Made by a program: the position numbers and the translations under genes. The notes beneath the pieces are model-generated. The model was not told where the DNA came from, did no database searches, and saw only the letters and a list, made by a program, of their open reading frames with translations. 59,924 bases of DNA from Minisyncoccota bacterium. Lineage in GTDB: Bacteria; Patescibacteriota; Minisyncoccia; Phycocordibacterales; UBA9973. The DNA lies in contig JAGOQQ010000002.1 in the NCBI GenBank assembly GCA_017991395.1, positions 1-59,924 on the forward strand, given 5' to 3'. Below are positions 4,945-45,842 of the stretch, in pieces. Position 1 is the stretch's first letter; every line of letters starts with the position of its first letter.

Positions 4945-5017
4945 GGGGACTATAGTTTAGTGGTAAAACTCCGGTTTGTGGAACCGGTATCGAGGGTTCA
5001 ATTCCCTCTAGTCCCCC
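4945..5017 (+). tRNA. tRNA-His (anticodon GTG), G-1 apparently encoded, CCA not encoded
   Basis: Cloverleaf built by hand. Acceptor GGGACTA/TAGTCCC with an extra 5' G opposite C73. Anticodon stem CCGGT/ACCGG with loop TTGTGGA. T arm GAGGG-TTCAATT-CCCTC. Confidence 0.9.
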
Positions 5018-17600: not shown

Positions 17601-20600
17601 CTGCCGCAACAACACAAGCTGGTTTGGATCGCCCGACAGCCATGGTGTTTGATTCGGGAACAAATCTTCTTTATGTTGCAGATTCTGGAAATCATCGTGT
17701 CGTTGTCTACAACACTGCATCACTTGCAACAGGAATGAGTGCGTCTTATGTGCTTGGACAAGCTACGTATACCGCAAGTGCTGTTGCAACAACACAATCA
17801 GGAATGAGATTCCCACAAGGGCTCGAGCTTGATACAGTAGGAGATAAATTGTTTGTATCCGATACTGGAAACAACCGTGTACTTGTATATGATGTTGCGT
17901 CAATCACAAATGGTGAGAATGCTCAAAATGTATTAGGACAAGCGTCGTTTGTTGCTCGAGTGTACGCAATCGCTGATTCAAACGATATGGCTTCGCCAAC
18001 AGAGCTTGAATTTGATCAAACCAATAAATTGCTCTATGTGTTGAACGAAGTGAATTCGGGAAATTCGGGACGAATTCTTCGATACGATACAAACTCAATT
18101 TCAGATAATGAAAACGCAACTCAACTAATCAGTGATGATTCAAATCTATATGGAATTCACGGATTGGGTCTTGATACAGATACAGAGACACTATATTTTT
18201 CAGTAAACGATCCACTAAGTGGTGCAAGCGGGCAAGATGTCGTGCACACGCTTGACCTTGCGTCTCTCACTGGTTCAGCTGAAGAAATAACACCAATTTC
18301 TCTTATTGGGGATACCATTGTTTCGATTATGGATGGCGATGTTGATGACAGAACATCGAGTCGTATGTTTGAACCTCGTGATATGGTAGTCAATTCAAAC
18401 ACGCGAGAATTGTATGTACTTGATTCTGGAAACAAACGTGTAATGGTGTTTGACCTTGTCGATCTGACGACAGCATCATTTTCAGCAGGAACAGAAGGGG
18501 TCGCATATTCTCAAAACCTTGCATCAACAAACAATCAAAACAACTTAGTATATCGTGGAGAAAATGTCGCTTTTGCTGCGTCTGATGCAACACAAGATTC
18601 TGATTTACCGCCAGGACTCACTCTTTCATCTGCCGGAGTATTGTCTGGAACACCAACAACAGCTGGAACATATACATTTACTGTTCGTGCATATGATACA
18701 AGTGGATCACTCGTTGCTGGTAATGTGTGGCCACTTTTGTGGGATAAAGAAACATATTCATTGACCATCAACGCAGATGCAGGACCAGATGCAGAGTGTA
18801 GTGATGGCATGGACAACGATGGAAATGGTCTCATTGACTACCCAGCAGATACTGGATGTGATAATGCAAATGATGACAGCGAAACAACCACCACAGGTGG
18901 AGGATCACCATCTGCATGTAATGATGATCTCGACAACGACGGAGATGGACTTGTGGATTTTCCCGCAGACACGAATTGCGAAAATATAAATGATGACAGT
19001 GAAGCACCAGAATGTAGTGACAGTGAAGACAACGACGGAGATGGACTTGTGGACATGTCGGATTCTGGATGTGCAAACGCAAATGACGACGATGAGGAGA
19101 ACAATGAAGCACCAGAGTGTAGTGATGGCATGGACAACGATGGTGATGAATTCACCGATTTCGGAGCAGATGATGGATGTACAAATGCCGATGATGATTC
19201 AGAATTTAGTATTGTGGTCACTCAATGTAATGACGGTATCAACAATAATGATGGTGATATATTCATTGATTACCCCGACGATATAGGGTGTGAAAATCTA
19301 AGTGATAATGACGAAAGAGATTATGCATGTAGTGATGGTAAGGACAACGACAATGATGGGCTCATTGATTATGGATTTGATCTTGGATGTTACGGACCAA
19401 CTGATCCAAGTGAGACAAACGTAATCATCGTCACGCCACCTGATGATCCTGAACCACCCGATGATCCAGTAGATGATGGTGGAGGCGGGGGAGGTATTGA
19501 TACAGAAGAGCCAGGGGACGAGGAGCCACCAGTTGATGTCGAACCGCCAGTAGAAGACGAAGAACCAGAGGATGACCCAGTTGTGTTGTCTGAAGGTGGT
19601 GGGTGTTTTAGAGAAATCACTACAATCACACCGCTTGGTGAAGTAATTGTAATTCAAGTGGAAGGAACTCTTTGTGAAGTAGAGAATATTATCGATGAGA
19701 CCACACGATATATCCAAAGTGTACTAAACAATCCATCCGGTAATTTCTTGGCGAAAATTATTGCAGTTGTGGGTCTAGTAATGGGTGCAATATTCACCGC
19801 TGTACCATACTTGTTCCTCACGCCGTTCTCGTTCTCAGAAGTTGCACTTCTTCCATATAGACTCTGGTCAATCTTGATGAGTATATTTGGACTCAAAAAA
19901 CAGGTACGTCCATGGGGTACGGTGTATGACTCAATCACGAAACAGCCTCTTGATCCTGCAATTGTAGAACTTCTTGATTTGGAAGGTAGACCAGTGGCGA
20001 CATCAACCACAGACATTGATGGAAGATATGGATTCCTCGTTGGTCCAGGTAAGTATCGCTTGCTTCCAAAAAAATCTCATTACGCGTTCCCATCACTTAA
20101 GTTGATTGGTAAAACACGAGATGAGTTGTATCTAGATTTGTATTTCGGATATGTATTTGAAATCACAAAAGAAGGAGAAGTGATTACAAAAAACATTCCT
20201 ATGGACCCTGAAAATTTTGACTGGAATGAGTTTGCAAAAAATGATCAAAAGAAAATGAGATTTTTCTCAAAGAGAGATTTCATTATTAGTCAGATTGCCG
20301 ACTTCTTGTTCTCAGTAGGATTCGTTGTTGCAGTAATCGCAATTATTTCTGCGCCAACAATCTACAACATTATTATTTTCTTGCTCTATGTAATCACTCT
20401 TATCTTGAAAGAGATGGGATTGAAGAGCTCATCGTTTGGAAGTGTCAAAGATGCTGATGGAAATCCACTTTCATTTGCCATCTTGAGAGTGAAGCTCACA
20501 GATGGAACAGAAATTTCACACAAGGTTACCAATGCGACAGGACGATTTTATTGTCTGATGCAAAATGGAACATATGTTGTGTCGATTGAGAGAAAAAATC

Positions 20601-20683
20601 CAGATGAATCATATACGAAGGTGTATGAAAATGTGCATCAAATCAAGAATGGAGTGCTGAACGGAAAAATAATAGTTAAATAA
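14678..20683 (+). CDS. Giant (2001 aa) multi-domain surface protein: signal anchor, ~17 NHL repeats, Ig-like module, six Cys-flanked DNDGDG repeats, acidic Pro-rich linker, TM segments interleaved with CarboxypepD_reg-like domains
   Basis: Recurrent SD(S/T)GNNRVLV(F/Y)D blades followed by GE(S/A)A..VLGQ.[33 protein letters not shown] is Ig-like. [22 protein letters not shown]-type units occur six times. [17 protein letters not shown] and [16 protein letters not shown] are CarboxypepD_reg-like. Confidence 0.9.
   Translation: [2001 protein letters not shown]
18786..19410 (+). repeat. Six tandem ~30-38-aa C-x-D-x2-DNDGDG-x2-D-x5-GC repeats inside the giant CDS
   Basis: 27-30-nt identical DNA stretches are shared between non-adjacent units: tgtagtgatggcatggacaacgatgg at ~18793 and ~19120, and gacaacgacggagatggacttgtgga at ~18934 and ~19030. 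Confidence 0.85.
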
Positions 20684-26693: not shown

Positions 26694-28049
26694 TTATGAT
26701 TCCTTTTTTACAATATCTTGTGTGCCACGTCGCAGACTCCATTCATCTTCTGAGTAGTCGCAATGAAGACTATATTTTTCACCAAGGGCTTGTGCAAGAT
26801 GATGTTCAATGTTTCGTCCCATTTGTTTCGCCACTATTCTCAGGGTTGGATGAACTGTTTGTTTTGTGCGTAATTCGCATGCATATATTGCAGCTGATAT
26901 CGGACCACGAACTTCACATGGGGTTCTGTATCCCATAGGAATATAATATTGACGATCTTCATTTGAACATTCAAGATTGTTGACTCTAGTTTCCATTTCA
27001 GAAATAAATCTTTCAGCATATTTTCTAGTTTCAGTGTCTCTAATTTGATTAAGATACCATTTTTCAAATCCAAAATTTGTGCTTAGTAACGGCATTGCAG
27101 TAGTCACCGCACGCTGTCTTTGCCAGTCCCTAAATGATCCAAAGTCTAGAAGAAATTTGAATGTTACATCACCACACAATCTTGCCTGTTTAGGAAGCTC
27201 TGAATTTTCAGGTCTCAGTAGAAACAATGATTTGTATTTTTTGATAAAATCAGTATCTATTGATATTGTCGCAGAAAGCTCATCATGCCCGTCATTGAAA
27301 AGCATGTCATCATTGAATGATACAATGGGTATTACTTTTTCCAAATACTCTTCATCTTTATCATACCGTTTGTGTCCAAAGCTACTCGGATACTTTTCTT
27401 TGAGCGTCGCGGTAATTTTTTCTGCAACTTCCCGAATTTCTCTAAGTGGATGATAACGCATTTCTTTTAAATGATCTGCTGCTTGGCGAAGATTTGTGTG
27501 CCAACTCACATATGTCGTCACACCCGCTGGTAGGAATCCACGTGCAATATCAAAAGCTTTTGCTTTGATTGTTTTGTTGTAGATTTTCTCATCCTCAGAA
27601 TCGTATCTTGGATATTCTTCAGGTAGTTGTCGGATTAGGGTTTCAAGTAAGTCACTATAAAATTTCATTTGATCAACAAGGATATTCTTTCCCTCGTCTG
27701 TGTCCAATATATTTATCACGGGCTGTGCTCCCATGTCTAAATATCGCGTGCTTGCTTCTTGCCCTGAATACAGTGGCCAATCCTGGATTGCTTTTGCGGT
27801 GAACATACTTACGTTTTCAACGCATAGAGTAATCGTGCCGCAATCACCGATTGACTTATGTCCATACCCAACATAGTAACTTGACATAAACTTCTCAGCT
27901 CCGCCTTCTTTAATGTTCTGTATATGTATTAGTACAGAGCGCGGATCTCTTGAATAGAGTGCTTGTAGCATCGCTACCACCTCAGGTGAAAAATCATCTA
28001 AGCAGATGATTTCCATAGGCGAATTCGGAATAATTGATTTCTTGTTCAT
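26694..28049 (-). CDS. Tandem-duplicated (pseudo-dimeric) ThyX-like flavin-dependent thymidylate synthase homolog
   Basis: The first half has GHKSIGDCG...QDWPLYSGQEASTRY, where the S..QE.S.RY part is kept but RHR is replaced by QDW. The second half has FGSFRDWQRQR, an RHR-like RQR. 451 aa, about twice the canonical ThyX length. Confidence 0.75.
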   Translation of the reverse strand: MNKKSIIPNSPMEIICLDDFSPEVVAMLQALYSRDPRSVLIHIQNIKEGGAEKFMSSYYVGYGHKSIGDCGTITLCVENVSMFTAKAIQDWPLYSGQEASTRYLDMGAQPVINILDTDEGKNILVDQMKFYSDLLETLIRQLPEEYPRYDSEDEKIYNKTIKAKAFDIARGFLPAGVTTYVSWHTNLRQAADHLKEMRYHPLREIREVAEKITATLKEKYPSSFGHKRYDKDEEYLEKVIPIVSFNDDMLFNDGHDELSATISIDTDFIKKYKSLFLLRPENSELPKQARLCGDVTFKFLLDFGSFRDWQRQRAVTTAMPLLSTNFGFEKWYLNQIRDTETRKYAERFISEMETRVNNLECSNEDRQYYIPMGYRTPCEVRGPISAAIYACELRTKQTVHPTLRIVAKQMGRNIEHHLAQALGEKYSLHCDYSEDEWSLRRGTQDIVKKES

Positions 28050-28066
28050 TTTTTTAAGAATTTAAG

Positions 28067-28104
28067 TTTGAGCTAATACTACGTATTTTCAGGTATTAGT
28101 CAAA
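28067..28104. promoter_or_regulatory. Inverted repeat (candidate operator) in the divergent thyX-like/DUF1599 promoter region
   Basis: TTTGA(G)CTAATAC, 13 nt, GTATTAGTCAAA. A TTGCGT-17 nt-TACTAT promoter-like element lies just downstream. Confidence 0.4.
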
Positions 28105-28154
28105 CTTTGCGTTATGTCGCAAAATTGGGTACTATGAGGAAAAATCGTTAGAAA

Positions 28155-28718
28155 ATGGGAAATAAAAAATTTACTACAGAAGAGTACTTTGACGAAATAT
28201 CACAAAAGATACTTGAAATTATTGAAAGCAAAAAAGCTGATTATGGATTGAGCATTCTCGTGTATCGTCCAGGTGCAATTACAACAAGAATTTACACAAA
28301 AATATTGCGTGTACAATCAATTCAAGAAGTTGGAGGTCAGAAAGTAGATGAACCAATTGAAGACACACTCCAAGAGTCACTGGGATATATACTTTTTCGA
28401 ATTGAAAGATGCTTCGAAAAAAAGCCAAAGTCTATAGAAGTTGAAAAACTTAAAAGTTACATTTCTAAAGTCAGAGATACCATGATTAGGAAAAATCATG
28501 ATTATGGTGAGGCATGGCGAGAAATGCGTATTTCTGATATTACTGACGAGATTCTTTCAAAGCTGGTGAGGATTCGAAAAATGGAAGATGATATCAAAAA
28601 AGATTCTTCAAAAACAGAAGATTTGTCACCTAAGATTATTGACGCGATTATAGATACATACAATTATGTTGTGTTTGCGCTAGTACATTTTAAAGAGAAA
28701 GTTAATCCTATGTTGTAG
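28155..28718 (+). CDS. DUF1599-like (nucleotide-modification-associated domain 1) protein, two internal repeats
   Basis: KADYGLS...RIYTKILRVQSI and KNHDYGEAWREMRISDITDEILSKLVRIRKME ... DTYNYVVFALV match my recollection of the DUF1599 pattern K..DYG.aw...DiL.Kl.Ri...NY..fal. Confidence 0.65.
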   Translation: MGNKKFTTEEYFDEISQKILEIIESKKADYGLSILVYRPGAITTRIYTKILRVQSIQEVGGQKVDEPIEDTLQESLGYILFRIERCFEKKPKSIEVEKLKSYISKVRDTMIRKNHDYGEAWREMRISDITDEILSKLVRIRKMEDDIKKDSSKTEDLSPKIIDAIIDTYNYVVFALVHFKEKVNPML

Positions 28719-30214: not shown

Positions 30215-31939
30215 ATGATGGGCGAAGTGATGAAAGATACTCTAGTGGGCGCAATCAAAGACGTACTTGGGGAGCTTGGGATAGAAAATCCGAAGGTGGT
30301 ATTGTCGTACCCGGAAGATCTTTCGTTTGGTGAATTTACCACAAATGTGGCGATGGCATATGCAAAAGAACTTGGAAAGAATCCAAAAGAACTCGCTGAA
30401 GAAATCTGTGAAAAATTGTCGGCCCGTTCTATTTCATATATTTCAAAAATAGAAGTCGCGGGTCCCGGCTTCATCAACTTCTCACTTTCTCGTGAATATT
30501 ATTCAAATATACTCAAAGAAATAATAGAAAAAGGAAATGAGTTTGGTCAAAGCACAGAGCTTTCTGGAAAGAAGGTGATGATTGAATACACTCAGCCTAA
30601 TCCATTTAAACCATTTCATATTGGGCATTTGATGTCGAATGCGATTGGTGAATCAATTTCAAGAATTATTGAATCTCAAGGTGCACAAGTAATCCGCGCA
30701 AACTATCAAGGCGATATTGGTCCGCATGTGGCCAAAGCTATTTATGGAATTATTAAAAAAGGGAAACCAGATGCGACCATTCCGCTTTTTGAACAAGCGC
30801 AAATAATAGGCGAGTATTATGCGTGGGGAAATAATGAGTACGAGACAAACGAAGACGCGAAGACCGAAATTGATCGAATCAACAAAGCTATCTATGAAAA
30901 AAGTGATGAATCAGTAAACGAGCTCTATGTGTGGGGAAGAGAAGTGACACTCAAGGCATTTGAGATATTGTATACATTGCTTGGAACAAGGTTTGACTAT
31001 TATTTTTTTGAAAGTGATACGGCCGTCTCCGGAAAGAAAATAGTTGAAGAAGGATTGAAAAATGGTGTGTTTGAAAATAGTGATGGAGCAGTGGTTTTTC
31101 ATGGAGAGAAATACGACCCAACACTTCACACCAGAGTCTTTGTTAATTCTCAAGGCCTGCCAACATATGAGGCAAAAGAACTTGGACTCACCAAGAAAAA
31201 ATTTGATGTAGAAAATCCTGACCTTTCTATTGTGACGACTGCGGTGGAACAAAAGGAATATATGCGTGTTGTGCTCAAGGCTGTTGAAATACTTTATCCA
31301 GAATATTCTGGGAAAATAATGCACATCAATCACGGAATGATGCGTTTTGCGACTGGAAAAATGTCTTCTCGAAAAGGCAACGTGATCACTGGTGAATCAT
31401 TGGTAGGTGATGCTGTGTCTGTAGTGAGTGAAATAATGAAAGAGCGAGATATGTCAGAAGAGGAGAGAAAAACAATTTCAGAAATTGTAGCAGTTTCGGC
31501 AATCAAATTTTCAATTCTTCGCCAGGCGACCGGAGGTGATATTGTATTTGATTTTGAAAACTCGATTTCATTTGAGGGAGATTCAGGACCATATTTACTC
31601 TATAGTGTCACACGTGCAAAATCCGCAATCGCCAAAGCTCTTGAAGCAGGAATTGAAGAATCTGTACAAAACCCAGTTTCAAAACTCACACCACTCGAAC
31701 AACTTCTCGGACGATTTCCGTCTGTTGTTTCTCGAGCACACGAAGAATTCGCACCACACCATATCGTCACATATCTACTTGCTCTTTCTGGTGCATTCAA
31801 TGCATTTTATGCTCACAACCCAATCGCACAAAAAGAAAATCTTGATTCGCCATACAACCTGATGATCACAAAATCGTTTGTGGAGATTATGAAAAATGGT
31901 CTCACACTACTTGGGATACGAACACCAGAAAAGATGTAA
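30215..31939 (+). CDS. argS: Arginine--tRNA ligase
   Basis: IEYTQPNPFKPFHIGHL (HIGH region), MSSRKG (KMSK-like), and the C-terminal DALR anticodon-binding domain. ORF of 574 aa. Confidence 0.95.
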   Translation: MMGEVMKDTLVGAIKDVLGELGIENPKVVLSYPEDLSFGEFTTNVAMAYAKELGKNPKELAEEICEKLSARSISYISKIEVAGPGFINFSLSREYYSNILKEIIEKGNEFGQSTELSGKKVMIEYTQPNPFKPFHIGHLMSNAIGESISRIIESQGAQVIRANYQGDIGPHVAKAIYGIIKKGKPDATIPLFEQAQIIGEYYAWGNNEYETNEDAKTEIDRINKAIYEKSDESVNELYVWGREVTLKAFEILYTLLGTRFDYYFFESDTAVSGKKIVEEGLKNGVFENSDGAVVFHGEKYDPTLHTRVFVNSQGLPTYEAKELGLTKKKFDVENPDLSIVTTAVEQKEYMRVVLKAVEILYPEYSGKIMHINHGMMRFATGKMSSRKGNVITGESLVGDAVSVVSEIMKERDMSEEERKTISEIVAVSAIKFSILRQATGGDIVFDFENSISFEGDSGPYLLYSVTRAKSAIAKALEAGIEESVQNPVSKLTPLEQLLGRFPSVVSRAHEEFAPHHIVTYLLALSGAFNAFYAHNPIAQKENLDSPYNLMITKSFVEIMKNGLTLLGIRTPEKM

Positions 31940-31950
31940 AAACGTAAACA

Positions 31951-31984
31951 AAATAGAGCGAGCCACAGGCTCGCTCTTTTTTGT
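31951..31984 (+). terminator. Intrinsic terminator after argS
   Basis: aaaatagagcgagcc-aca-ggctcgctc followed by tttttt. Confidence 0.85.
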
Positions 31985-32033
31985 TTTTGACAACACAGCA
32001 AGGATTATATACTATGAACAAAAAATAGAACAA

Positions 32034-32705
32034 ATGGGAAACTTAAGCATAGTACTTAGAAATCAAAATTTATTTAATATTGAAAATCAGACTCAGGATG
32101 AAATAGTTAAAATACTGACACTGGTTGCTCTTGTCTGGGTTTGTTTTTTCATTGTAACAATAATTAAAAAATTTATTGATTCTAAAAAAAGACCGTATCA
32201 TGAATGGTGGGTTAGAGTGTATCTAGATGAGATTAAGAAAATTAAACTTAATAATTCTGAAATCGATGGAAAATTGAGAAAAATTAGAAATTATTCTTCT
32301 CGCCAGATAAAACATGAGATGCATCTTTTTTCAATCCACGTGAGGAAAAGATCAGAAAAAGATACACAGAAAATGTTCAATAAGTATTTCTTTGAGATAA
32401 TCGGTGAGTCTTTAGTGTGTATTGAAAATAGTGTAAATGCGAATAGAAATTTGAAGGTATATTTTGATACGAGTACTGTCGATAATTATTTGGAGCAAAT
32501 ATCAAACACTGTTCGGTGTTACTCACCAAGAGTGTTGAGATGTCATCAAGGTTGTTATTGTGAATGTTATGAATCGCTGAAGAAAAATTTTGTTGCACTG
32601 ATGGACTCTCTTGAAAAATCAAAGTTAGAATTTACAAAAGCACGAGTCAGTGAATTGATAGGAGTGTTTGAGTCATGTATATATGATTTTAAACATCAGC
32701 ATTGA
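32034..32705 (+). CDS. Hypothetical membrane protein with a Cys-rich C-terminal region
   Basis: The ATG at 32034 lies downstream of the argS terminator. TM segment ILTLVALVWVCFFIVTII. A CHQGCYCECYES cluster is present. TGA stop followed by a terminator. Confidence 0.6.
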   Translation: MGNLSIVLRNQNLFNIENQTQDEIVKILTLVALVWVCFFIVTIIKKFIDSKKRPYHEWWVRVYLDEIKKIKLNNSEIDGKLRKIRNYSSRQIKHEMHLFSIHVRKRSEKDTQKMFNKYFFEIIGESLVCIENSVNANRNLKVYFDTSTVDNYLEQISNTVRCYSPRVLRCHQGCYCECYESLKKNFVALMDSLEKSKLEFTKARVSELIGVFESCIYDFKHQH

Positions 32706-33121: not shown

Positions 33122-36100
33122 ATGAACAACGACCAAGAAAACAAATCACCAGGAGCGCTTCGCGAAGAAAAGATTCTCGCACAATGGAAAGAAAAAGATA
33201 TTTTCAAAAAGTCTCTTGAAAAAAACAAAGACAAAAAAGAGTTTGTCTTTTTCGAAGGTCCTCCGACTGCAAATGCAAAGCCCGCACTCCACCATCTCGA
33301 AGCGCGTGCGTTCAAGGATGTGATTCCACGGTTCAAAACAATGCAAGGATACAATGTTCGCCGAAAAGCGGGATGGGACACTCACGGACTTCCTGTGGAG
33401 CTTCAGATTGAAAAAGCACTTGGACTCACTTCAAAAAAAGATATTGAGAAATATGGAATTGCAAAGTTCAATGCAAAATGTCGTGAAAGCGTTTTTGAGT
33501 TCATTAAAGACTGGGAAGATTTTACTGACAGAATTGGCTATTGGGTAGACAAAGATGATGCATACTTTACTTTTGACTCACATTACGTCGAAGCTCTTTG
33601 GGGTGTGGTAAAAAAAATAAATGACAGAGGGTTGCTCTACAAAGATTATCGTATTGTGCCGTGGTGTGCACGTTGTGGTACAGGACTTTCTTCTCACGAA
33701 CTTGCACAAGGATATTTGGATGTAAAAGATTTGAGCGTAACTGCAAAATTTAAGCTGACCGCGGAATCGACGCGGAAATTACGCGGAACTGACGCGGAAA
33801 ATACTTATTTTCTCGCGTGGACTACTACACCATGGACACTTCCAGGAAATGTCGCACTTGCAGTCGGAGCTGATATCGAATACGTAGAAATAAAAGTGGG
33901 GGAAGAAATTTTGGTTCTTGCAAAAGAGCGATTGAGTGTGATTGCAGATCCATATGAAATTATTGCAACCCACAAGGGAAGTGAAATGGTGGGAATGAAG
34001 TACGAACCACTTTACCCATTTTTCTCTGAGCTAGCTGCGAGTAGTCAATCGCTAGACACTGCATTCAAAGTGTATGTCGCGGATTTTGTGACCACAGAAG
34101 ATGGAACAGGAATTGTGCACACGGCGGTGATGTATGGTGCAGATGACTTTGCACTCGGAACATCGCTTGGTTTGCCAAAATTTCACGTAGTAAAAGAGGA
34201 TGGACATTTCTTGGATGGAATGGATTTTCTATCTGCTCGTTTTGTAAAAGATGAGGAAGTGGCGATTGATATCATCAAAGACCTTGCACACAGGGGACTC
34301 CTTTTCAAAAAAGAAAAATACGAACACTCATATCCGCATTGTTGGAGATGTAAAACTCCGCTTTTGTACTATGCGCGGGATTCTTGGTATGTTGCGATGT
34401 CAAAACTTAGGAATGTTTTGGTCAGTGAAAATGAAAAAATAAATTGGGAACCAACACATATTAAAGATGGACGATTTGGTGAGTGGATTCGTGAAGCCAA
34501 AGATTGGGCATTTTCTCGTGAGAGATATTGGGGAACACCACTTCCTGTGTGGAAGAAAACTGACGGAACATTTGTAGTACTTGGAAATCTTGATGAAATA
34601 AAAAGACACACAAAAAAATCTGGCAACACATATTTTGTCATGCGCCACGGTGAGACAAAGAGTAATGTCGAGGGACGTATCGACTCGCTTCTTTCAAATG
34701 GCACAACACTCACAGAAAATGGTGTTGATCAGGTGCTCAAGAGTTCTCAGTTTTTCCAAGATAAAAATATTGATTTGATTTTCACGTCACCACTTGCTCG
34801 CACAAAAGAGACCGCAGAAATTGTCCAAAAAGATCTCGGACTTTCTGATGAGTGTGTGATTGCTGAGAATAGAATAATAGAAATGCAGGTAGGAACATAC
34901 GAAGGGAAAACTTGGGAAGAATACCACAACGATTTTCCGAAGACAGTCGAAAATTTTGATCAGAAGAAAGAGAATGATGAATCGTATGAAGATGTAAAGA
35001 AGCGCGTGGGAGAATTTCTTTATGACATTGAATCAAAATATCAAAATAAAAATATTTTGATTGTGACACACGGCGCGCCTGCATGGATGCTCTTTTCTGT
35101 GGCATCTGGAAAAAATAGAGAGGATACACTAGGGATGATTAAAGATATATCGGAATTTCATTATTTTCAAAATGCTGAAATCAAGCAATTGTCGTTTGTC
35201 CCACTTTCTCACAACGAAAAATATGAATTTGATCCGCACAGACCATTTATAGATGATCTGCAACTTGTCGATGAAAAGGGCGAGCCAATGATTCGCGAAA
35301 ATGTGGTGATGGATGTGTGGTTTGATAGTGGTGCGATGCCTTTCGCTCAGTACGCGGATGAACGCAGATTTGACGCCGATGGTCGCGGATATGAATCATT
35401 TGAGGATTTGTGGAAACGGACTCCGTATCCAGCGGATTTTATTTCTGAAGCTATCGATCAGACTCGTGGGTGGTTCTACACGCTTCTTGCAGTAGGAGTA
35501 CTTATGGAGCGAGGAACTCCATACAAAAACGTGATTTGTCTCGGACACCTTCTTGATAAAGACGGAAAGAAAATGTCGAAATCTATCGGGAATGTCGTTG
35601 AACCATGGGAACAAATGGCAAAGTATGGCGTTGATACAATTCGACTTTGGATGTACTCGGTCAATCAGCCAGGCGAAGGGAAGAATTATGATGAGAAAAT
35701 TATCCTTGAACTTTCACGAAAAGTATTTGCGCTACTCGACAACTGCTATACATTTTATGATCAGTATAAAAATGATTCAAACATTTCTAGTTCAAGCTTT
35801 GAGCTTCCGAATACTTCTCATGTCTTGGACAAATGGATTGTTTCGTTGCTTCACAAAATGATTAAAGAGGGAACAGATGCACTTGAGAAATATGATTTGT
35901 TTACTGCGTCACGACTCATCAAAGATTTCGTGAATGATTTTTCAACGTGGTATATCCGAAGATCACGCGACCGATTCAAGTCTGATGATGTTGAAGACAA
36001 AAACAATGCACTTGCGACAACTCGCTATGTGATACTTGAACTCGCAAAATATATGGCACCATTTACGCCATTTTATGCAGATGATTTGTATCAAAAGATT

Positions 36101-36637
36101 GGCGGAACAAAAGAGTCAGTTCATCTTGAGGATTGGAGCACAGAACATGGAACATGGGACACTCAAATTCTTTCTGATATGGAAATGGTGCGTGATATTG
36201 TGACAAAAGGACTTGAGGCTCGGCAAAAATCTGGAATCAAAGTTCGTCAGCCACTTGGCACACTCAAGGTGAAAAGTGAAAAATTGAAAGAAGAATATTT
36301 TGAAATTCTCAAGGATGAATTGAACCTTAAAGAAATTGTTGAAGATATGTCACTAGAAGCTGACGTTATTCTTGATACCGAAATAACTCCCGAATTAAAA
36401 ATGGAAGGGGATTTTCGCGAACTCGCACGAGGAATTCAAGATTTACGAAAAACGAGTGGACTTACTCCAAACGACCGTATCAATCTTTCAATCGAAACAA
36501 ACGAAGAAGGAAAGAAGGTTGTCGAAACATTTATGAACGAACTTAAAAAAATTGTCCAAGCTGATTCGGTGGTATTTGAAAACAATAACGGACAAGAAAT
36601 TAAAGTCGACGAAAATGTGTTTAAGATTAAAATATAA
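33122..36637 (+). CDS. ileS: Isoleucine--tRNA ligase with an inserted histidine-phosphatase-superfamily domain
   Basis: PPTANAKPALHH (HIGH region), WTTTPWTLPGN, CP1 editing domain, WAFSRERYWGTPLPVW, DVWFDSGAMPFAQ, DQTRGWFYTL and KMSKS. Residues ~504-700 read YFVMRHGETKSN ... SPLARTKETA ... THGAPAWML. Confidence 0.95.
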   Translation: MNNDQENKSPGALREEKILAQWKEKDIFKKSLEKNKDKKEFVFFEGPPTANAKPALHHLEARAFKDVIPRFKTMQGYNVRRKAGWDTHGLPVELQIEKALGLTSKKDIEKYGIAKFNAKCRESVFEFIKDWEDFTDRIGYWVDKDDAYFTFDSHYVEALWGVVKKINDRGLLYKDYRIVPWCARCGTGLSSHELAQGYLDVKDLSVTAKFKLTAESTRKLRGTDAENTYFLAWTTTPWTLPGNVALAVGADIEYVEIKVGEEILVLAKERLSVIADPYEIIATHKGSEMVGMKYEPLYPFFSELAASSQSLDTAFKVYVADFVTTEDGTGIVHTAVMYGADDFALGTSLGLPKFHVVKEDGHFLDGMDFLSARFVKDEEVAIDIIKDLAHRGLLFKKEKYEHSYPHCWRCKTPLLYYARDSWYVAMSKLRNVLVSENEKINWEPTHIKDGRFGEWIREAKDWAFSRERYWGTPLPVWKKTDGTFVVLGNLDEIKRHTKKSGNTYFVMRHGETKSNVEGRIDSLLSNGTTLTENGVDQVLKSSQFFQDKNIDLIFTSPLARTKETAEIVQKDLGLSDECVIAENRIIEMQVGTYEGKTWEEYHNDFPKTVENFDQKKENDESYEDVKKRVGEFLYDIESKYQNKNILIVTHGAPAWMLFSVASGKNREDTLGMIKDISEFHYFQNAEIKQLSFVPLSHNEKYEFDPHRPFIDDLQLVDEKGEPMIRENVVMDVWFDSGAMPFAQYADERRFDADGRGYESFEDLWKRTPYPADFISEAIDQTRGWFYTLLAVGVLMERGTPYKNVICLGHLLDKDGKKMSKSIGNVVEPWEQMAKYGVDTIRLWMYSVNQPGEGKNYDEKIILELSRKVFALLDNCYTFYDQYKNDSNISSSSFELPNTSHVLDKWIVSLLHKMIKEGTDALEKYDLFTASRLIKDFVNDFSTWYIRRSRDRFKSDDVEDKNNALATTRYVILELAKYMAPFTPFYADDLYQKIGGTKESVHLEDWSTEHGTWDTQILSDMEMVRDIVTKGLEARQKSGIKVRQPLGTLKVKSEKLKEEYFEILKDELNLKEIVEDMSLEADVILDTEITPELKMEGDFRELARGIQDLRKTSGLTPNDRINLSIETNEEGKKVVETFMNELKKIVQADSVVFENNNGQEIKVDENVFKIKI
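33759..33800 (+). repeat. Four ACGCGGAA words with an exact 11-bp period, in frame inside ileS
   Basis: ccgcggaatcg acgcggaaatt acgcggaactg acgcggaaaat, encoding TAESTRKLRGTDAEN in a variable loop just before WTTTPWT. Confidence 0.85.
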
Positions 36638-37173: not shown

Positions 37174-37243
37174 TAATTGACGCAATGTTGAGTTTTATGT
37201 AAGGCGAAGAATAAAAATAGTGTATTTAATAATAAATATAACC

Positions 37244-37807
37244 ATGTCAAAAAAAGTATTTATAATTCATGGATTTCAAAGTACACCAGAAAGTGATTGG
37301 CGTCCGTGGCTCAAAGAGAATCTAGAAGCACAAGGTGACGTCGTGGAGCTTTTGAAAATGCCCACTCCAAATGATCCTGTGCGAGATGAATGGGTCAAAT
37401 CAATTTCCGATGCTGTGCAAAATCCAAATGAAGATGTTTACCTGGTAGGGCACAGCCTTGGAGTCCCAACGATTTTGAATTATCTTGAATCATTAAACGA
37501 AGGCGAAAAAATTGGTGGGGCGGTGCTCGTTTCTGGATTCTACAAACCACTTCTTGAAGATGAAGAGCCAGAAGAAAGAAAGATTGACCATTTTGCTGAT
37601 CATGAATTTGATTGGGATAAAATAAAAAGCGTATGCGGAAAGTGTGTGGTGATTCACGGAGATGACGATGACGTGGTCCCTCTCTATCATGCAGAACATA
37701 TTTCAAAAATGCTCGGCTGTGAACTCGTCATAGTGAAAGGTGGCGGACATCTGAATACTGAAAGCAACTGGAACCAACTTCACGAGGTGCTTGATTTTCT
37801 GGAATAG
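37244..37807 (+). CDS. Alpha/beta serine hydrolase, YdeN/RBBP9-like
   Basis: IIHGFQSTPESDWRPWL, nucleophile elbow GHSLG, and late D...GGH. ATG at 37244 preferred. Confidence 0.8.
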   Translation: MSKKVFIIHGFQSTPESDWRPWLKENLEAQGDVVELLKMPTPNDPVRDEWVKSISDAVQNPNEDVYLVGHSLGVPTILNYLESLNEGEKIGGAVLVSGFYKPLLEDEEPEERKIDHFADHEFDWDKIKSVCGKCVVIHGDDDDVVPLYHAEHISKMLGCELVIVKGGGHLNTESNWNQLHEVLDFLE

Positions 37808-44462: not shown

Positions 44463-45842
44463 ATGGAAAAAATGAACAACAATGTAGATATGGAAACTTT
44501 GGTATCTCTGGCAAAGAGACGCGGCTTTGTGTTTCAAGGTTCAGAGATATACGGAGGACTTGGTGGAACATGGGACTTTGGTCCATATGGTGTGGCACTG
44601 AAAAATAATATCAAAGAATCTTGGCGAAAAAAGTTTGTACACAATCGAGAAGATATGTACGAAGTGGATGCCGCGATATTGATGAATCCAAAGGTGTGGG
44701 AATCGAGTGGGCACGTCGGGGGATTTTCTGATCCACTCGTCGAAGACTTGAAAACTCAAAAGCGTTTTCGTGCGGACACTCTTCTTGAAGACAATGGAGT
44801 CAATCCAACAGGAATGTCGCTTTCTGATATGACACAAGCAATTAAAGAAAAAAATCTTCTAAGTCCTGAGGGAAATCCTCTCGGTGAAGTTCGACAATTT
44901 AATATGATGTTTAGTACTTCAATTGGTGCGATGGAAGATTCTGCATCGACCATATATCTTCGCCCTGAAACTGCGCAGGGAATGTTTGTAAATTATAAAA
45001 ATATCATTGATTCGATTCACCCAAAAATTCCATTCGGAATGGCACAAATAGGTAAAGCATTTCGAAATGAAATAACTCCACGAGATTATCTTTTTCGTGT
45101 AAGAGAATTTGAGCAAATGGAAATTGAATATTTTGTCAAAGAGGGAGATTGGCAAAAGTACTTTGAATTTTTTAAAGATGAAATGCGTGAATGGTTTGAA
45201 GAAGTGGGAATAGATGGCACAAAGCTTGTAGAAATTGAAAAAGCACCAGAAGATCTCGCCCATTACTCAAAGCGAACTGTAGACTACGAATTTCATTTTC
45301 CGTTTGGACAAAAAGAACTTTCTGGTCTTGCGTATCGAACAAATTTTGATTTGAGTGTTCATCAAAAAGGAAGTACTCAAAATCTTGAATATTTCGATGA
45401 AGAAACAAAAGAAAAATATCTACCACACGTTATTGAGCCATCATTTGGACTCGATCGTGCACTACTCGCACTTCTCGTGTCTGCATATACCGAAGTTCCT
45501 GACAAGGAGGGTACTCGTGTCTATTTGAAATTCAAACCAAGTATCGCACCTGTGATTGCATGTGTCTCACCGCTACTTAAAAACAAACCAGAACTCGTGA
45601 CAAAAGCCCGCGAGGTGTTTGGTGCACTCAAATCTCAATTTGGACGAATCGCATGGGATGACAATGGAAATATCGGAAAGCGTTATCGTCGACAAGACGA
45701 AATCGGAACACCGTGGTGTATCGTGATTGACTTCGACTCACTCACTGATGAGAGTGTGACTGTGCGTGATCGAGATACAGGCGAACAAGAGCGAATCAAA
45801 ATTTCAGAACTTTCAACATATATTTCATCTCGAATTTCATAA
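44463..45842 (+). CDS. glyQS: Glycine--tRNA ligase (dimeric class II GlyQS type)
   Basis: LAKRRGFVFQGSEIYGGLGGTWDFGPYG, LRPETAQG, FRNEITPR, and EPSFGLDRALLA motifs. Confidence 0.95.
   Translation: MEKMNNNVDMETLVSLAKRRGFVFQGSEIYGGLGGTWDFGPYGVALKNNIKESWRKKFVHNREDMYEVDAAILMNPKVWESSGHVGGFSDPLVEDLKTQKRFRADTLLEDNGVNPTGMSLSDMTQAIKEKNLLSPEGNPLGEVRQFNMMFSTSIGAMEDSASTIYLRPETAQGMFVNYKNIIDSIHPKIPFGMAQIGKAFRNEITPRDYLFRVREFEQMEIEYFVKEGDWQKYFEFFKDEMREWFEEVGIDGTKLVEIEKAPEDLAHYSKRTVDYEFHFPFGQKELSGLAYRTNFDLSVHQKGSTQNLEYFDEETKEKYLPHVIEPSFGLDRALLALLVSAYTEVPDKEGTRVYLKFKPSIAPVIACVSPLLKNKPELVTKAREVFGALKSQFGRIAWDDNGNIGKRYRRQDEIGTPWCIVIDFDSLTDESVTVRDRDTGEQERIKISELSTYISSRIS

Follow-up and report, generated by a model that had tools for sequence, protein, structure and literature searches.

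A Histidine Phosphatase Nested in the CP3 Loop of Type-2 Isoleucyl-tRNA Synthetase in the Candidate Phyla Radiation

The ileS gene (positions 33122–36637, plus strand) located in the analysed stretch of DNA from a Minisyncoccota bacterium (59,924 nt in total, hereafter the window) encodes, in a single ORF of 1171 aa, a type-2 isoleucyl-tRNA synthetase (IleRS) with a nested branch-1 histidine phosphatase. It is very likely that the nested phosphatase is real and active, and that the IleRS carrying it is functional. The original prediction had placed a complete branch-1 histidine phosphatase inside IleRS, and Pfam, NCBIfam, IleRS structures, structure prediction, and recurrence in the Candidate Phyla Radiation (CPR) agree on it; the profile search, ortholog alignment, structure prediction and CPR search suggested as checks all came out in its favour. 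Few enzymes are as conserved as the aminoacyl-tRNA synthetases (aaRS), whose catalytic cores are generally regarded as leaving little room for alteration. In this case, a foreign enzyme with a strictly conserved active site is found inside the core insertions of IleRS across a large part of the CPR. A full-text literature search returned no description of an IleRS– or aaRS–phosphatase fusion, and the word "phosphatase" is absent from the main text of a 2026 survey of 96,219 IleRS domain architectures.

Identity of the Host Synthetase

The reading frame of ileS is continuous, as claimed originally, with neither internal stops nor in-frame TGA codons. The encoded protein scores above the cutoff of the ileS equivalog TIGR00392 (848.2 vs. 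621.4 bits; NCBIfam), and Pfam searches revealed a tRNA-synt_1 match (PF00133; E-value, 2 × 10−107) in two stretches, as well as the Anticodon_1 (aa 903–1045) and DUF5915 (aa 1051–1171) domains. The C-terminal organisation is that of type-2 enzymes, namely Anticodon_1 plus DUF5915 without the C-terminal Zn-binding domain of IleRS1. The best PDB matches are IleRS2 (8c8w; E-value, 3 × 10−230) and Thermus thermophilus IleRS, both well above IleRS1. Outside the insert, the protein is collinear with IleRS2 of Priestia megaterium (8C8U/8C8W) and T. thermophilus IleRS (1ILE), and its full-length AF2 model (pLDDT 88, pTM 0.79) matches IleRS structures in Foldseek with TM values of 0.76–0.85.

The original prediction that the IleRS motifs are intact was borne out for the CP1 editing motifs and KMSKS; HIGH is present in a variant form. 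The editing motifs (W233-TTTPWT, G328/G330/V332/H333, and D342) are invariant in an alignment of 73 sequences, and the CP1 region matches the isolated IleRS editing-domain structures 1WK8/1UE0. The KMSKS loop (K817–S821; 35570–35584, plus strand) is likewise invariant in the 73 sequences. The class I signature, as read from the sequence, is the non-canonical A55-L56-H57-H58 of the A/GXHH type (33284–33295, plus strand), and this motif varies among carriers of the nested phosphatase. G/AXHH is a variant known only from IleRS2 and is linked to mupirocin hyper-resistance (PMC10485003). The window protein thus shares its editing domain, KMSKS, Anticodon_1 plus DUF5915, and A/GXHH motif with the eukaryote-like, mupirocin-resistant type-2 enzymes; judged by its motifs, it is a type-2 IleRS that keeps all those for synthesis and editing. 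It differs from an ordinary IleRS2 in about 198 extra residues, a foreign enzyme domain placed in the CP3 loop.

Phosphatase Domain

His_Phos_1 (PF00300) was detected at aa 505–667 (E-value, 1 × 10−35), with 123.6 bits for the whole protein and 127.6 bits for the insert alone against a cutoff of 21.7. All four of the phosphatase motifs cited in the original prediction are present: the phosphate-binding Arg and nucleophilic His in R508-H509-G510 (34643–34651), the second phosphate-pocket Arg, R560 (34799–34801), the general acid/base Glu, E587 (34880–34882), and the second catalytic His, H650 (35069–35071), all on the plus strand. Each of these is 100% invariant among 65 full-length genes. Mean identity among carriers is 37% for the insert vs. 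53% for the IleRS core, and the catalytic residues, being invariant despite such divergence of the insert, appear to be under purifying selection. In a phospho-histidine mechanism, R508, R560 and H650 would form the phosphate pocket, with H509 as the nucleophile and E587 as the acid/base.

The insert is predicted to fold confidently as an independent unit. Its stand-alone AF2 model has a pLDDT of 94.3 and a pTM of 0.91, pLDDT of the same region within the full-length model is 90–97, and Foldseek matched the insert model (probability, 1.00; TM, 0.71–0.79) to 4IJ5, 1H2E, 4QIH, 6E4B, and 6M1X. The fold and length (about 200 aa) are those of PhoE/YhfR (1H2E, 1EBB), the phosphoserine phosphatase iPSP1 (4IJ5), GpgP Rv2419c (4QIH), and CobC (6E4B, 6NRU). 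PhoE, iPSP1, GpgP, and CobC share the RHG, R, E, and H residues with the insert at 22–27% identity, but they are free-standing, whereas the window phosphatase is nested in another enzyme. By both sequence and fold, the nearest relatives of the insert are, without exception, phosphomonoesterases of about 200 aa that act on small molecules, and a similarity to fructose-2,6-bisphosphatase domains was also detectable. The nested domains are neutral to acidic (mean net charge, −2.6; window copy, −9), unlike typical RNA-binding modules.

None of the equivalog models reached its cutoff on the insert (CobC, 88.1 of 162.9 bits; PspA, 81 of 350; SixA, 38.1 of 74.5), and therefore a substrate is not transferable from CobC, PspA or SixA. 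The models of phosphoglycerate mutase proper (dPGM) also scored below cutoff (dPGM_arch, 82.5 of 225 bits; pgm_1, 22.3 of 81.7; GpmB, 53.9 of 261), and the insert has about 195 aa vs. the about 250-aa dPGM architecture. The label "PGM family" fits the insert only at the level of the broad superfamily. The best NCBIfam match of the insert is NF005567 (bifunctional RNase H/CobC-like acid phosphatase of the Rv2228c type; 93.6 bits, far below the cutoff of 326), in which a phosphatase of the same subgroup is fused to a nucleic-acid enzyme. That fusion is terminal and has another partner enzyme, whereas the window phosphatase is nested.

Insertion Site and Boundaries

Based on PF00300, the alignment to 8c8w, AF2 and Foldseek, the nested domain spans aa ~497–694 (34610–35203, plus strand), including a conserved "KKSGNxY" entry linker. 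The originally proposed limits (34631–35220, aa 504–700) were essentially right and required only this refinement. Residues 12–496 of the window protein align to residues 11–477 of the P. megaterium IleRS2 chain (8c8w), and residues 695–1073 to residues 478–848; since chain residues 477 and 478 are contiguous across the gap, the ~198 residues in between represent a clean insertion. According to the alignments, the N-terminal half of CP3 (WGTPLPVW...LGNLDEIKRH; 34529–34609, plus strand) includes what was once the first strand of the Zn knuckle. The C-terminal half (PLSHNEKYEFDPHRPFIDD...MDVWFDSG; 35204–35332, plus strand) is native IleRS2 sequence again, the alignment to 8c8w restarting at aa 695, and the "PLP..DLHRPYID" sequence of the kind that follows the insert is also found in insert-free IleRS2. 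The spacing from WxxPxxW to DxWFDSG is 253 aa in the window protein vs. 52–65 aa in insert-free relatives. The insertion point is hence the zinc-knuckle loop of CP3 (as defined in PMC7191050), which is a peripheral and structurally variable module. The original prediction located the insertion in the catalytic core; it is indeed nested in insertions of that core, but not in the Rossmann core proper.

The entry and exit linkers of the insert are conserved in the alignment and confidently modelled by AF2. CP3 of T. thermophilus forms a Cys4 knuckle, as in many relatives, whereas the Zn-ligand cysteines are gone from CP3 of the window copy. Among 65 carriers, the 2+2 cysteines are kept in 21 and lost in 42. 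Since about half of the insert-free relatives have lost these ligands too, the loss is not tied to insertion, and the idea that the insert replaced the Zn knuckle is weakened. The same figures bear on the view of the domain as a silent structural or regulatory module, which would stabilise CP3 in place of the knuckle, oligomerise, or sense a phosphorylated metabolite allosterically. The loss of Zn ligands in most carriers and the ordered, conserved linkers would fit such a role, as would the fact that many homologues (PhoE, iPSP1, GpgP) are dimers. The frequent loss in insert-free relatives speaks against it, and a purely structural part would not be expected to keep its nucleophile, acid/base residue and entire phosphate pocket unchanged across very deep divergence, which makes this explanation highly improbable.

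An intein was also considered and rejected: no HINT/intein match was found in Pfam, the fold is that of a histidine phosphatase, and, as read from the sequence, "PLSHN" is followed by Glu and the N-terminal junction has no nucleophile.

Recurrence and Inheritance

The IleRS–phosphatase architecture was found in at least 125 species-representative CPR genomes, of which 64 contain it as a complete single ORF; about a dozen partial fusions were found at 33–47% identity. Both PF00133 and PF00300 are present in each of the 120 best homologues. Of 60 loci with sufficient sequence ahead of ileS, 56 have argS upstream in the same orientation; in the window, argS is found at 30215–31939 (arginyl-tRNA synthetase; plus strand; Pfam tRNA-synt_1d, Arg_tRNA_synt_N, and DALR_1). 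The nested architecture is vertically inherited in at least 125 species with conserved argS–ileS synteny, and, far from being rare, it is how ileS is normally built in a large CPR clade.

These data leave next to no room for an assembly chimera, a frameshift or a gene-calling artefact that would have joined IleRS to an unrelated phosphatase. Downstream of the insert, the IleRS sequence continues in frame, a 98%-identical protein is present in an independent MAG, identical junctions recur in hundreds of diverged homologues, and the architecture is also found on Mb-scale contigs and a CP-accession chromosome. Moreover, GC content across the insert (0.34–0.41, vs. about 0.40 for the whole gene) shows no compositional break. 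The only sign in the opposite direction is a long-read contig (L085) with a fragmented ileS, but the whole region there is broken by frameshift-like errors. The artefact explanation is effectively refuted by the recurrence of the junctions in diverged genes and on Mb-scale contigs. P0021, a fragment of 199 aa encoded on a long-read contig of 166 kb, resembled a split gene but was set aside, the entire ileS region there being shattered into small ORFs.

Divergence of the insert is correlated with that of the IleRS core (Mantel r = 0.25; 0 of 2000 permutations); the correlation is significant but weak because of saturation, and it weakly suggests co-evolution of the two. A single origin of the nested copies was not recovered: in neighbour-joining (NJ) analysis, nested and free-standing phosphatases were cleanly split in 36 of 200 bootstraps, with a "free" set that may include fragments of nested copies. 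Copies preceding KMSKS were intermixed with free ones, and the copies located after KMSKS formed the sole clade.

CPR IleRS as a Host of Several Domains

The window phosphatase is one instance of a broader tendency of CPR IleRS to host nested domains. In different lineages, His-phosphatase domains occupy three different, well-separated loops (A, B, and C), with one to four copies per protein and the catalytic residues intact in nearly all of them: the RHGNREH signature was found in 188 of 213 pre-KMSKS and 64 of 65 post-KMSKS copies. Copies within one protein are only 22–37% identical to each other.

In relatives, the same slots also hold HAD phosphatases, GNAT, P-loop kinase, serine hydrolase, DUF559, and Y1 transposase domains, and some of this cargo is without an obvious role in aminoacylation. 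Slot B, as set by sequence landmarks for HAD, Ser_hydrolase and the other cargo, contains two HAD phosphatases with an intact nucleophile Asp in P0372 and a Ser_hydrolase domain with intact GHSLG in P0362. In P0373, P0393, and P0396, His_Phos_1 is directly followed by a P-loop kinase of the AAA_33/AAA_18 type, and in P0388 and P0394 phosphatase and kinase sit in different slots; such kinase-bearing variants are a small minority. Additionally, P0239 combines IleRS with Y1_Tnp, phosphatase, and GNAT; this singleton ends before KMSKS and was not relied on, and the placement of Y1_Tnp in CP1 was seen again in the full-length P0394.

A curated precedent of IleRS with an extra catalytic domain is NF040702 (IleRS, N-acetyltransferase domain-containing), and CPR relatives of the window protein likewise bear GNAT. 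NF040702 comes from another lineage. Against its cutoff of 1999 bits, the window protein and GNAT-bearing CPR IleRS score 245–319 bits, the window protein itself having 319 bits and no GNAT match in Pfam. Eukaryotic aaRS have also received lineage-specific additions (UNE-I, WHEP, and GST-like domains) that leave the core function intact, and an INS insertion has been described in the ARD2 domain of IleRS2 (bioRxiv 10.64898/2026.02.03.703510). These additions are non-catalytic and mostly terminal or in the anticodon-binding region, whereas a complete enzyme is nested in the catalytic-domain insertions of the window protein.

Possible Function of the Nested Phosphatase

The reading preferred here, which falls only a little short of probable, is that IleRS acts as a permissive scaffold for a phosphomonoesterase that works autonomously on small molecules. 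The protein encoded by ileS is very likely bifunctional, a working type-2 IleRS that also carries an active phosphatase. This autonomous phosphatase would hydrolyse phosphomonoesters via a phospho-His509 intermediate. Its substrate would most likely be a diffusible small molecule (a nucleotide, a sugar phosphate or a phospho-amino acid), as suggested by the small-molecule phosphomonoesterases among which its nearest relatives fall and by the neutral to acidic character of the domain. Its action would not depend on exact placement with respect to the active site of IleRS, given that similar phosphatases occupy three well-separated loops, and permissiveness of the scaffold is indicated by the unrelated cargo held in the same slots. 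IleRS would serve mainly as an insertion-tolerant, constitutively expressed scaffold, the two activities being linked by co-expression or co-localisation and not by shared chemistry, and the phosphatase would have been retained after nesting because the cell needs its activity.

Some observations count against a mere scaffold. The recurrence of phosphatases (three slots, one to four copies, and the HAD pair) is what a specific phosphatase–IleRS link would predict, and the ordered, conserved linkers suggest a fixed orientation and not a loose tether. Furthermore, no host other than IleRS was found in the 146 closest representative clusters, despite the presence of homologous loops in ValRS and LeuRS. 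Less probably, CPR IleRS may instead be a modular platform of accessory enzymes that act on IleRS substrates or on IleRS itself, for example, by healing phosphorylated tRNA ends, clearing products, or reversing or pre-empting toxin or antibiotic attack. The window phosphatase would then be no passenger but the original and most widely distributed part of a repair/defence toolbox embedded in an aaRS.

The original prediction had suggested that the phosphatase could act on a phosphorylated nucleotide or a tRNA-end species, or link charging to a signalling nucleotide. One specific possibility is tRNA end-healing, in which the phosphatase would strip a 3′- (or 2′-) phosphate from damaged tRNA, e.g., after cleavage by a ribotoxin, for repair and recharging, with IleRS as the tRNA-binding platform and the P-loop kinase of relatives completing a PNKP-like pair. 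T4 and bacterial PNKP are built on such a pairing of kinase and phosphatase, and the five kinase-bearing proteins named above combine the two; His_Phos_1 and P-loop kinase in one polypeptide also resemble PFK-2/FBPase-2. In both comparisons the domain order and context differ, and no kinase domain was found by Pfam in the window protein, AAA_33/AAA_18 being confined to some relatives. The restriction to IleRS as host would suit this role, and the NF005567 match, made through the phosphatase half of that family, indicates that fusions of such phosphatases to nucleic-acid enzymes exist. In addition, the CCA pocket for tRNA is lined by the CP2–CP3 linker, which directly precedes the insert (PMC7955072). 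The IleRS studies consulted describe no tRNA contact by CP3, however, and the acidic to neutral domain, the close structural relatives that all act on small molecules, the three distant slots, and the rarity of kinase-bearing variants all speak against end-healing. There is also no reason for tRNA-Ile alone to need repair, and histidine phosphatases are not known to act as RNA 3′-phosphatases. Altogether, end-healing is considered unlikely.

Distinctly unlikely is also the clearance of products or ligands, whereby the tethered phosphatase would hydrolyse PPi, AMP or a phosphorylated regulatory nucleotide at IleRS and so pull or tune amino-acid activation in organisms with minimal metabolism. 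Phosphatase cargo seems to have been selected repeatedly on IleRS, including the unrelated HAD-type pair, and some HAD enzymes are inorganic pyrophosphatases. Up to four copies would fit a benefit of dosage or local concentration, insensitivity to geometry would fit diffusible products, and the fructose-2,6-bisphosphatase domains that the insert resembles occur together with a P-loop kinase in PFKFB. On the other hand, branch-1 histidine phosphatases are phosphomonoesterases for which PPi hydrolysis is not established, hydrolysis of AMP would waste adenylate, and the low identity of copies within one protein suggests different specificities more than dosage. Nor is it obvious why IleRS alone, among about 20 aaRS, would require such clearance.

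Protection of the target, with phosphatase, GNAT, kinase and esterase cargo reversing phosphorylation of IleRS by kinase toxins or modifying inhibitors, is given a smaller chance still. The enzymes carried as cargo (acetyltransferase, P-loop kinase, serine hydrolase/esterase, and phosphatase) belong to classic inhibitor-modifying enzyme classes, and IleRS is a well-known target of natural products, with the A/GXHH motif of the window protein being associated with mupirocin hyper-resistance. Kinases of the HipA family phosphorylate aaRS and thereby inactivate them, mimics of aminoacyl-adenylates are detoxified by MccE/RimL GNATs, and mupirocin, for its part, is an ester. The case is made wholly by analogy, however: searches of the PADLOC defence-system libraries gave no match, DUF559 and Y1 transposase do not fit such cargo, known IleRS inhibitors are without a phosphomonoester, and the closest relatives of the insert are metabolic phosphatases.

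If the phosphatase is coupled to charging, it would represent a new kind of aaRS accessory function (tRNA repair, product clearance or target protection) and offer a handle on translation upkeep in minimal symbionts. If it is uncoupled, as in the preferred reading, it would still be a striking natural case of domain nesting and scaffold permissiveness. In related lineages, up to four IleRS loops are filled with phosphatases, kinases, acetyltransferases, and hydrolases, and the three loops of this class I aaRS that tolerate insertions may be of use in protein engineering. The finding also matters for annotation, as many such proteins bear no more specific name than "class I tRNA ligase family protein" or are even called "GNAT family N-acetyltransferase".

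Gene Surroundings

Rfam and tRNA scans of the window revealed nothing near ileS, with no T-box or leader in the 417-bp gap upstream of the gene, and no free-standing paralogue of the phosphatase is encoded in the 60-kb window. The gene neighbourhoods of free-standing phosphatase relatives gave no functional hint. Two ORFs downstream of ileS, a Ser_hydrolase gene was identified (37220–37807, plus strand; PF06821; E-value, 6 × 10−31), and such a gene is found near ileS in 7 of 80 loci. In the relative P0362, this family occurs as a domain nested within IleRS.

Domain Organization of the Window IleRS

The ileS gene of the window (33122..36637, forward strand) is an uninterrupted ORF of 1171 aa. 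No in-frame TGA or other stop was found within it, in agreement with the continuous reading frame of the original prediction. Pfam analysis revealed a class I synthetase catalytic domain divided into two separate stretches, Anticodon_1 and DUF5915 domains, and a significant His_Phos_1 match at aa 505–667 (E = 1e-35; 123.6 bits vs. a gathering score of 21.7). In NCBIfam, the protein scores above the cutoff of the curated ileS equivalog (848 bits vs. 621). All of the testable sequence- and fold-level features that define type 2 IleRS (IleRS2) were found in the protein, and all of those that define the branch-1 histidine phosphatase superfamily were found in the insert.

Alignment with Priestia megaterium IleRS2 (8c8w) delimited the insertion: aa 12–496 of the window IleRS correspond to residues 11–477, and aa 695–1073 correspond to residues 478–848. 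Thus, an insertion of ~198 residues (aa ~497–694, nt ~34610–35203) separates two positions that neighbour each other in normal IleRS2. The spacing between the WxxPxxW and DxWFDSG motifs is 253 residues in the window protein, compared with 52–65 in insert-free relatives, and no compositional discontinuity was observed across the insert. In P0411, one of the insert-free relatives, a loop of ~12 aa takes the place of aa 497–694. Membership of the protein in the NCBI IleRS-with-GNAT family was rejected, as was an intein as the identity of the insert.

The IleRS motifs had been predicted to be intact. This is the case for the synthetic and editing motifs, all of which are invariant in a 73-sequence alignment, but the class I "HIGH" motif is actually a non-canonical A55-L-H-H58 (ALHH, of the G/AXHH type; 33284–33295, forward strand). 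The G/AXHH motif is tolerated in IleRS2 only and is tied to mupirocin hyper-resistance (PMC10485003). Among the insert-bearing relatives, GIHH/ALHH, canonical HYGH and unusual HAGS/HSGS variants are found.

Predicted Fold and Nearest Relatives of the Insert

AlphaFold2 modelled the whole window IleRS with a mean pLDDT of 88 and a pTM of 0.79, the insert and both junctions reaching a pLDDT of ~90–97; the IleRS part of the model matches IleRS structures with TM scores of 0.76–0.85. Modelled alone, the insert also folds confidently (pLDDT, 94.3; pTM, 0.91), and it is predicted to be able to fold independently. Together with the Pfam match, the 8c8w alignment and the recurrence in relatives described below, these models support the interpretation of the inserted segment as a complete histidine phosphatase inside IleRS.

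The top structural matches of the insert (TM, 0.71–0.79; 22–27% identity) are all compact small-molecule phosphomonoesterases, namely phosphoserine phosphatase iPSP1, PhoE, GpgP (Rv2419c), E. histolytica PSP, a riboflavin-pathway histidine-family phosphatase and CobC. Dimers are common among the homologues of the domain. Weaker NCBIfam matches were to CobC, PspA, dPGM, SixA and the phosphatase half of RNase H/acid phosphatase; since every score fell below the cutoff, assignment of the insert as a dPGM, CobC, PspA or SixA equivalog was rejected. In three related loci (L036, L052 and L076) the insert is shorter (~160 aa) and lacks the segment equivalent to window aa ~590–617. This segment belongs to the variable "cap" region, which usually shapes substrate specificity in this superfamily.

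Among the closest free relatives of the insert is a free-standing phosphatase with 36% identity (P0015; locus L081, 5001–5603), whose contig also holds archaeal-type ribosomal genes (L21e, DUF655, RNA_pol_L). The phosphatase subgroup of the insert may therefore be common to CPR bacteria and archaea, possibly of the DPANN-like kind.

Insertion Site in the CP3 Zinc Knuckle

The insertion point lies within CP3, a small class Ia synthetase insertion module that bridges CP2 and the latter half of the Rossmann fold; in T. thermophilus IleRS it is a zinc knuckle rich in Cys, and its topology differs in each solved IleRS (PMC7191050; PMC10810186). Immediately upstream of the insertion is the CP2–CP3 linker "...SRxRYWG"; in yeast IleRS, this linker lines the pocket for tRNA CCA and reveromycin (PMC7955072). 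In several carriers of the insert, the CxxC...CxC ligands are still present on either side of it, which places the domain in the loop of the knuckle. All four Zn-ligand cysteines are kept in 21 of 65 carriers and lost in 42 of 65, including the window copy (ligand positions 34553–34570 and 35267–35281). They are also gone in about half of the insert-free relatives; thus, the loss is not a consequence of insertion.

Recurrence of the Architecture and Genomic Context

A search with the junction region retrieved roughly twelve partial protein sequences from Patescibacteria/Paceibacterota metagenomes that combine PF00133 and PF00300 with identical junctions (33–47% identity). With one genome per GTDB species, equivalent insertions were found in at least 125 genomes, belonging to Nomura-, Adler-, Zambryski-, Taylor- and Wolfebacteria and other Parcubacteria-type CPR. 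The nested insert is the common state of ileS in this large CPR clade. Among the 80 loci kept, 64 contain a complete single-ORF ileS with the insert (1088–1339 codons). The best 120 matches to the full-length query (55–98% identity) all share the Pfam composition of the window IleRS, and their source records use no names other than "isoleucyl-tRNA synthetase" and "class I tRNA ligase family protein".

In the window, argS (30215–31939, forward strand) forms a conserved gene pair with ileS. Sixty of the loci L001–L080 extend far enough upstream for a comparison, and 56 of these have argS ahead of ileS in the same orientation, at an ArgRS identity of only 25–58%, which indicates a stable, vertically inherited chromosomal locus. 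An artefact as the origin of the IleRS–phosphatase architecture is excluded.

On a 166-kb long-read contig (L085, 5099–8187), ileS with its insert is split into six or more small ORFs, and the neighbouring genes are likewise broken. This fragmentation looks like uncorrected indel errors and calls for caution in counting "split" IleRS genes.

No paper describing or discussing the architecture was found in the openly accessible full-text literature, and the word "phosphatase" is absent from the main text of a 2026 survey of 96,219 IleRS domain architectures. The architecture is already visible in databases, as in the JGI automatic name [quoted passage not shown]. Synthetases with accessory domains are a known kind; what we rate as new here is the nesting of a foreign enzyme in CP3.

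Conservation of the Nested Phosphatase

In 65 full-length genes, the mean identity is 37% for the insert and 53% for the IleRS core. The four phosphatase motifs that were predicted for the insert are present, and the residues to which they correspond (R508-H509-G510, R560, E587 and H650) are 100% invariant in this set, as are G534, S556 and R628; N515 and E620 are 97% conserved. The junctions are conserved as well, with the entry linker KKSGNxY (N502 invariant) and the exit PLPHNE. Judged from the sequences, purifying selection for catalysis probably acts on both the IleRS and the phosphatase halves.

CPR IleRS as a Multi-Slot Host

An exhaustive search that used the insert itself as query, without a profile, yielded 13,859 matches at E ≤ 1e-3. 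The best 146 representative clusters comprise 88 IleRS-linked ones, 51 short phosphatase-only proteins or fragments, and seven longer proteins without IleRS homology, four of which are tandem phosphatases; no host protein family other than IleRS was found among these 146. Some IleRS contain two to four phosphatase domains, either in tandem in CP3 or distributed over three different loops (P0291, P0300, P0269, P0237, P0171, P0313, P0316). These multi-copy proteins are real; the P0300 cluster has six members, whose contigs reach 1.06 Mb. Every copy keeps the catalytic signature, and copies within one protein are only 22–37% identical.

The wider context was unexpected: in CPR bacteria, IleRS hosts enzymes in several slots. 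A search seeded with a two-copy protein retrieved IleRS of the Gracilibacteria, Peregrinibacteria and Peribacteria type in many additional architectures, up to 1859 aa in length and with up to four extra domains per protein. Mapping of the cargo against sequence landmarks defined three slots. Slot A, the CP3 loop, contains His_Phos_1 of the window type (171 of 242 full-length proteins), tandem His_Phos_1, DUF559 or GNAT. Slot B, between DxWFDSG..MPFAQ and PADFI..DQxRGW, contains His_Phos_1, GNAT, a P-loop kinase (AAA_33/AAA_18), two tandem HAD phosphatases with an intact nucleophile motif, or a Ser_hydrolase with an intact GHSLG. Slot C, after KMSKS and before the anticodon-binding domain, contains His_Phos_1 or a kinase; in 37 proteins His_Phos_1 is found solely in slot C, with CP3 unoccupied.

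Carriers of other enzymes are P0372 (L086, 4001–8515), P0362, P0311, P0392 (L087, 4001–8257; CP065009.1), P0373, P0388, P0393, P0394, P0396, P0324 and P0366, whose nested cargo comprises two HAD phosphatases, Ser_hydrolase, GNAT, AAA_33/AAA_18/Zeta-like P-loop kinase and DUF559. Under code 11, both the HAD variant and a His_Phos+GNAT variant read as single open frames; the second of these is encoded on a 1.56-Mb chromosome (CP065009.1). The related proteins P0111, P0307, P0320 and P0352 are encoded on contigs of 0.8–1.6 Mb.

In some relatives, the CP1 editing domain also contains in-frame domains of mobile-element type, either an IS200/RAYT-like Y1 transposase or a DUF559/Vsr-like endonuclease (P0394, aa 346–470; P0239, aa 326–472; P0388, aa 294–399); the Y1 domain of P0239 matches NF047646 with 81 bits vs. 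a cutoff of 80.

The RHGNREH catalytic signature is found in 188 of 213 phosphatase copies located before KMSKS and in 64 of 65 located after it. The post-KMSKS copies form one clade, which is no nearer to the CP3 copies than free-standing enzymes are. These sequence relationships are compatible with, but do not prove, at least two independent nesting events.

Possible Role of the Nested Phosphatase

The established mechanism of the histidine phosphatase family proceeds via a phospho-His intermediate. By analogy, the insert would hydrolyze phosphomonoesters via phospho-His509, with R508, R560 and H650 binding the phosphate and E587 acting as acid/base. The sequences and models show a complete domain with an intact active site, ordered junctions, an intact IleRS and deep conservation. 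A purely structural role of the insert is unlikely given the invariant nucleophile.

Somewhat short of even confidence, we favour an autonomous small-molecule phosphatase riding on an unusually insertion-tolerant IleRS scaffold, because every one of its nearest relatives is a metabolite phosphatase, its charge is neutral to acidic, unlike that of RNA-binding modules, and it is found in three spatially distinct loops, which also take cargo implausible for aminoacylation (Y1 transposase, DUF559). Alternatively, the phosphatase could be coupled to IleRS function through tRNA end-healing, clearance of PPi, AMP or a regulatory nucleotide, or shielding of IleRS as a target of kinase toxins or inhibitors; jointly, these roles are a tentative, minority possibility. 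IleRS is the sole host seen among the best 146 representative clusters, phosphatase cargo recurs across several slots and copy numbers, and an unrelated HAD phosphatase occupies slot B, a pattern that a specific benefit of phosphatase activity at IleRS would produce. Pairs of kinase and phosphatase speak for end-healing in particular. Whether autonomous or coupled, the function of the nested phosphatase is experimentally tractable.

Other Features of the Window

A Ser_hydrolase (PF06821) gene (37220–37807, forward strand) is located two ORFs downstream of ileS. This family is nested in slot B of P0362 and occurs near ileS in seven of 80 related loci; the combination of nested domain and neighbouring gene hints at a functional link of the Rosetta-stone type. 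Most of the argS–ileS spacer is occupied by a very AT-rich (GC, 0.28–0.33) 269-aa ORF (31896–32705, forward strand), whose first 44 nt overlap the end of argS. Neither a Pfam match nor a homologue across the 80 related loci was found for this ORF, which may not be a real gene.

A probable large surface protein of 2001 aa (14678–20683, forward strand) combines NHL/beta-propeller repeats with a CarboxypepD_reg domain at its C terminus. At 26694–28718, a ThyX-like protein on the minus strand, unusually long at 450 aa, has a DUF1599 ("nucleotide modification associated domain 1") protein as its neighbour. The sole RNA gene detected in the window is tRNA-His(GTG) (4946–5017, forward strand), and a third synthetase gene, of class II (tRNA-synt_2b and HGTP_anticodon; 44463–45842, forward strand), is located ~8 kb downstream of ileS.
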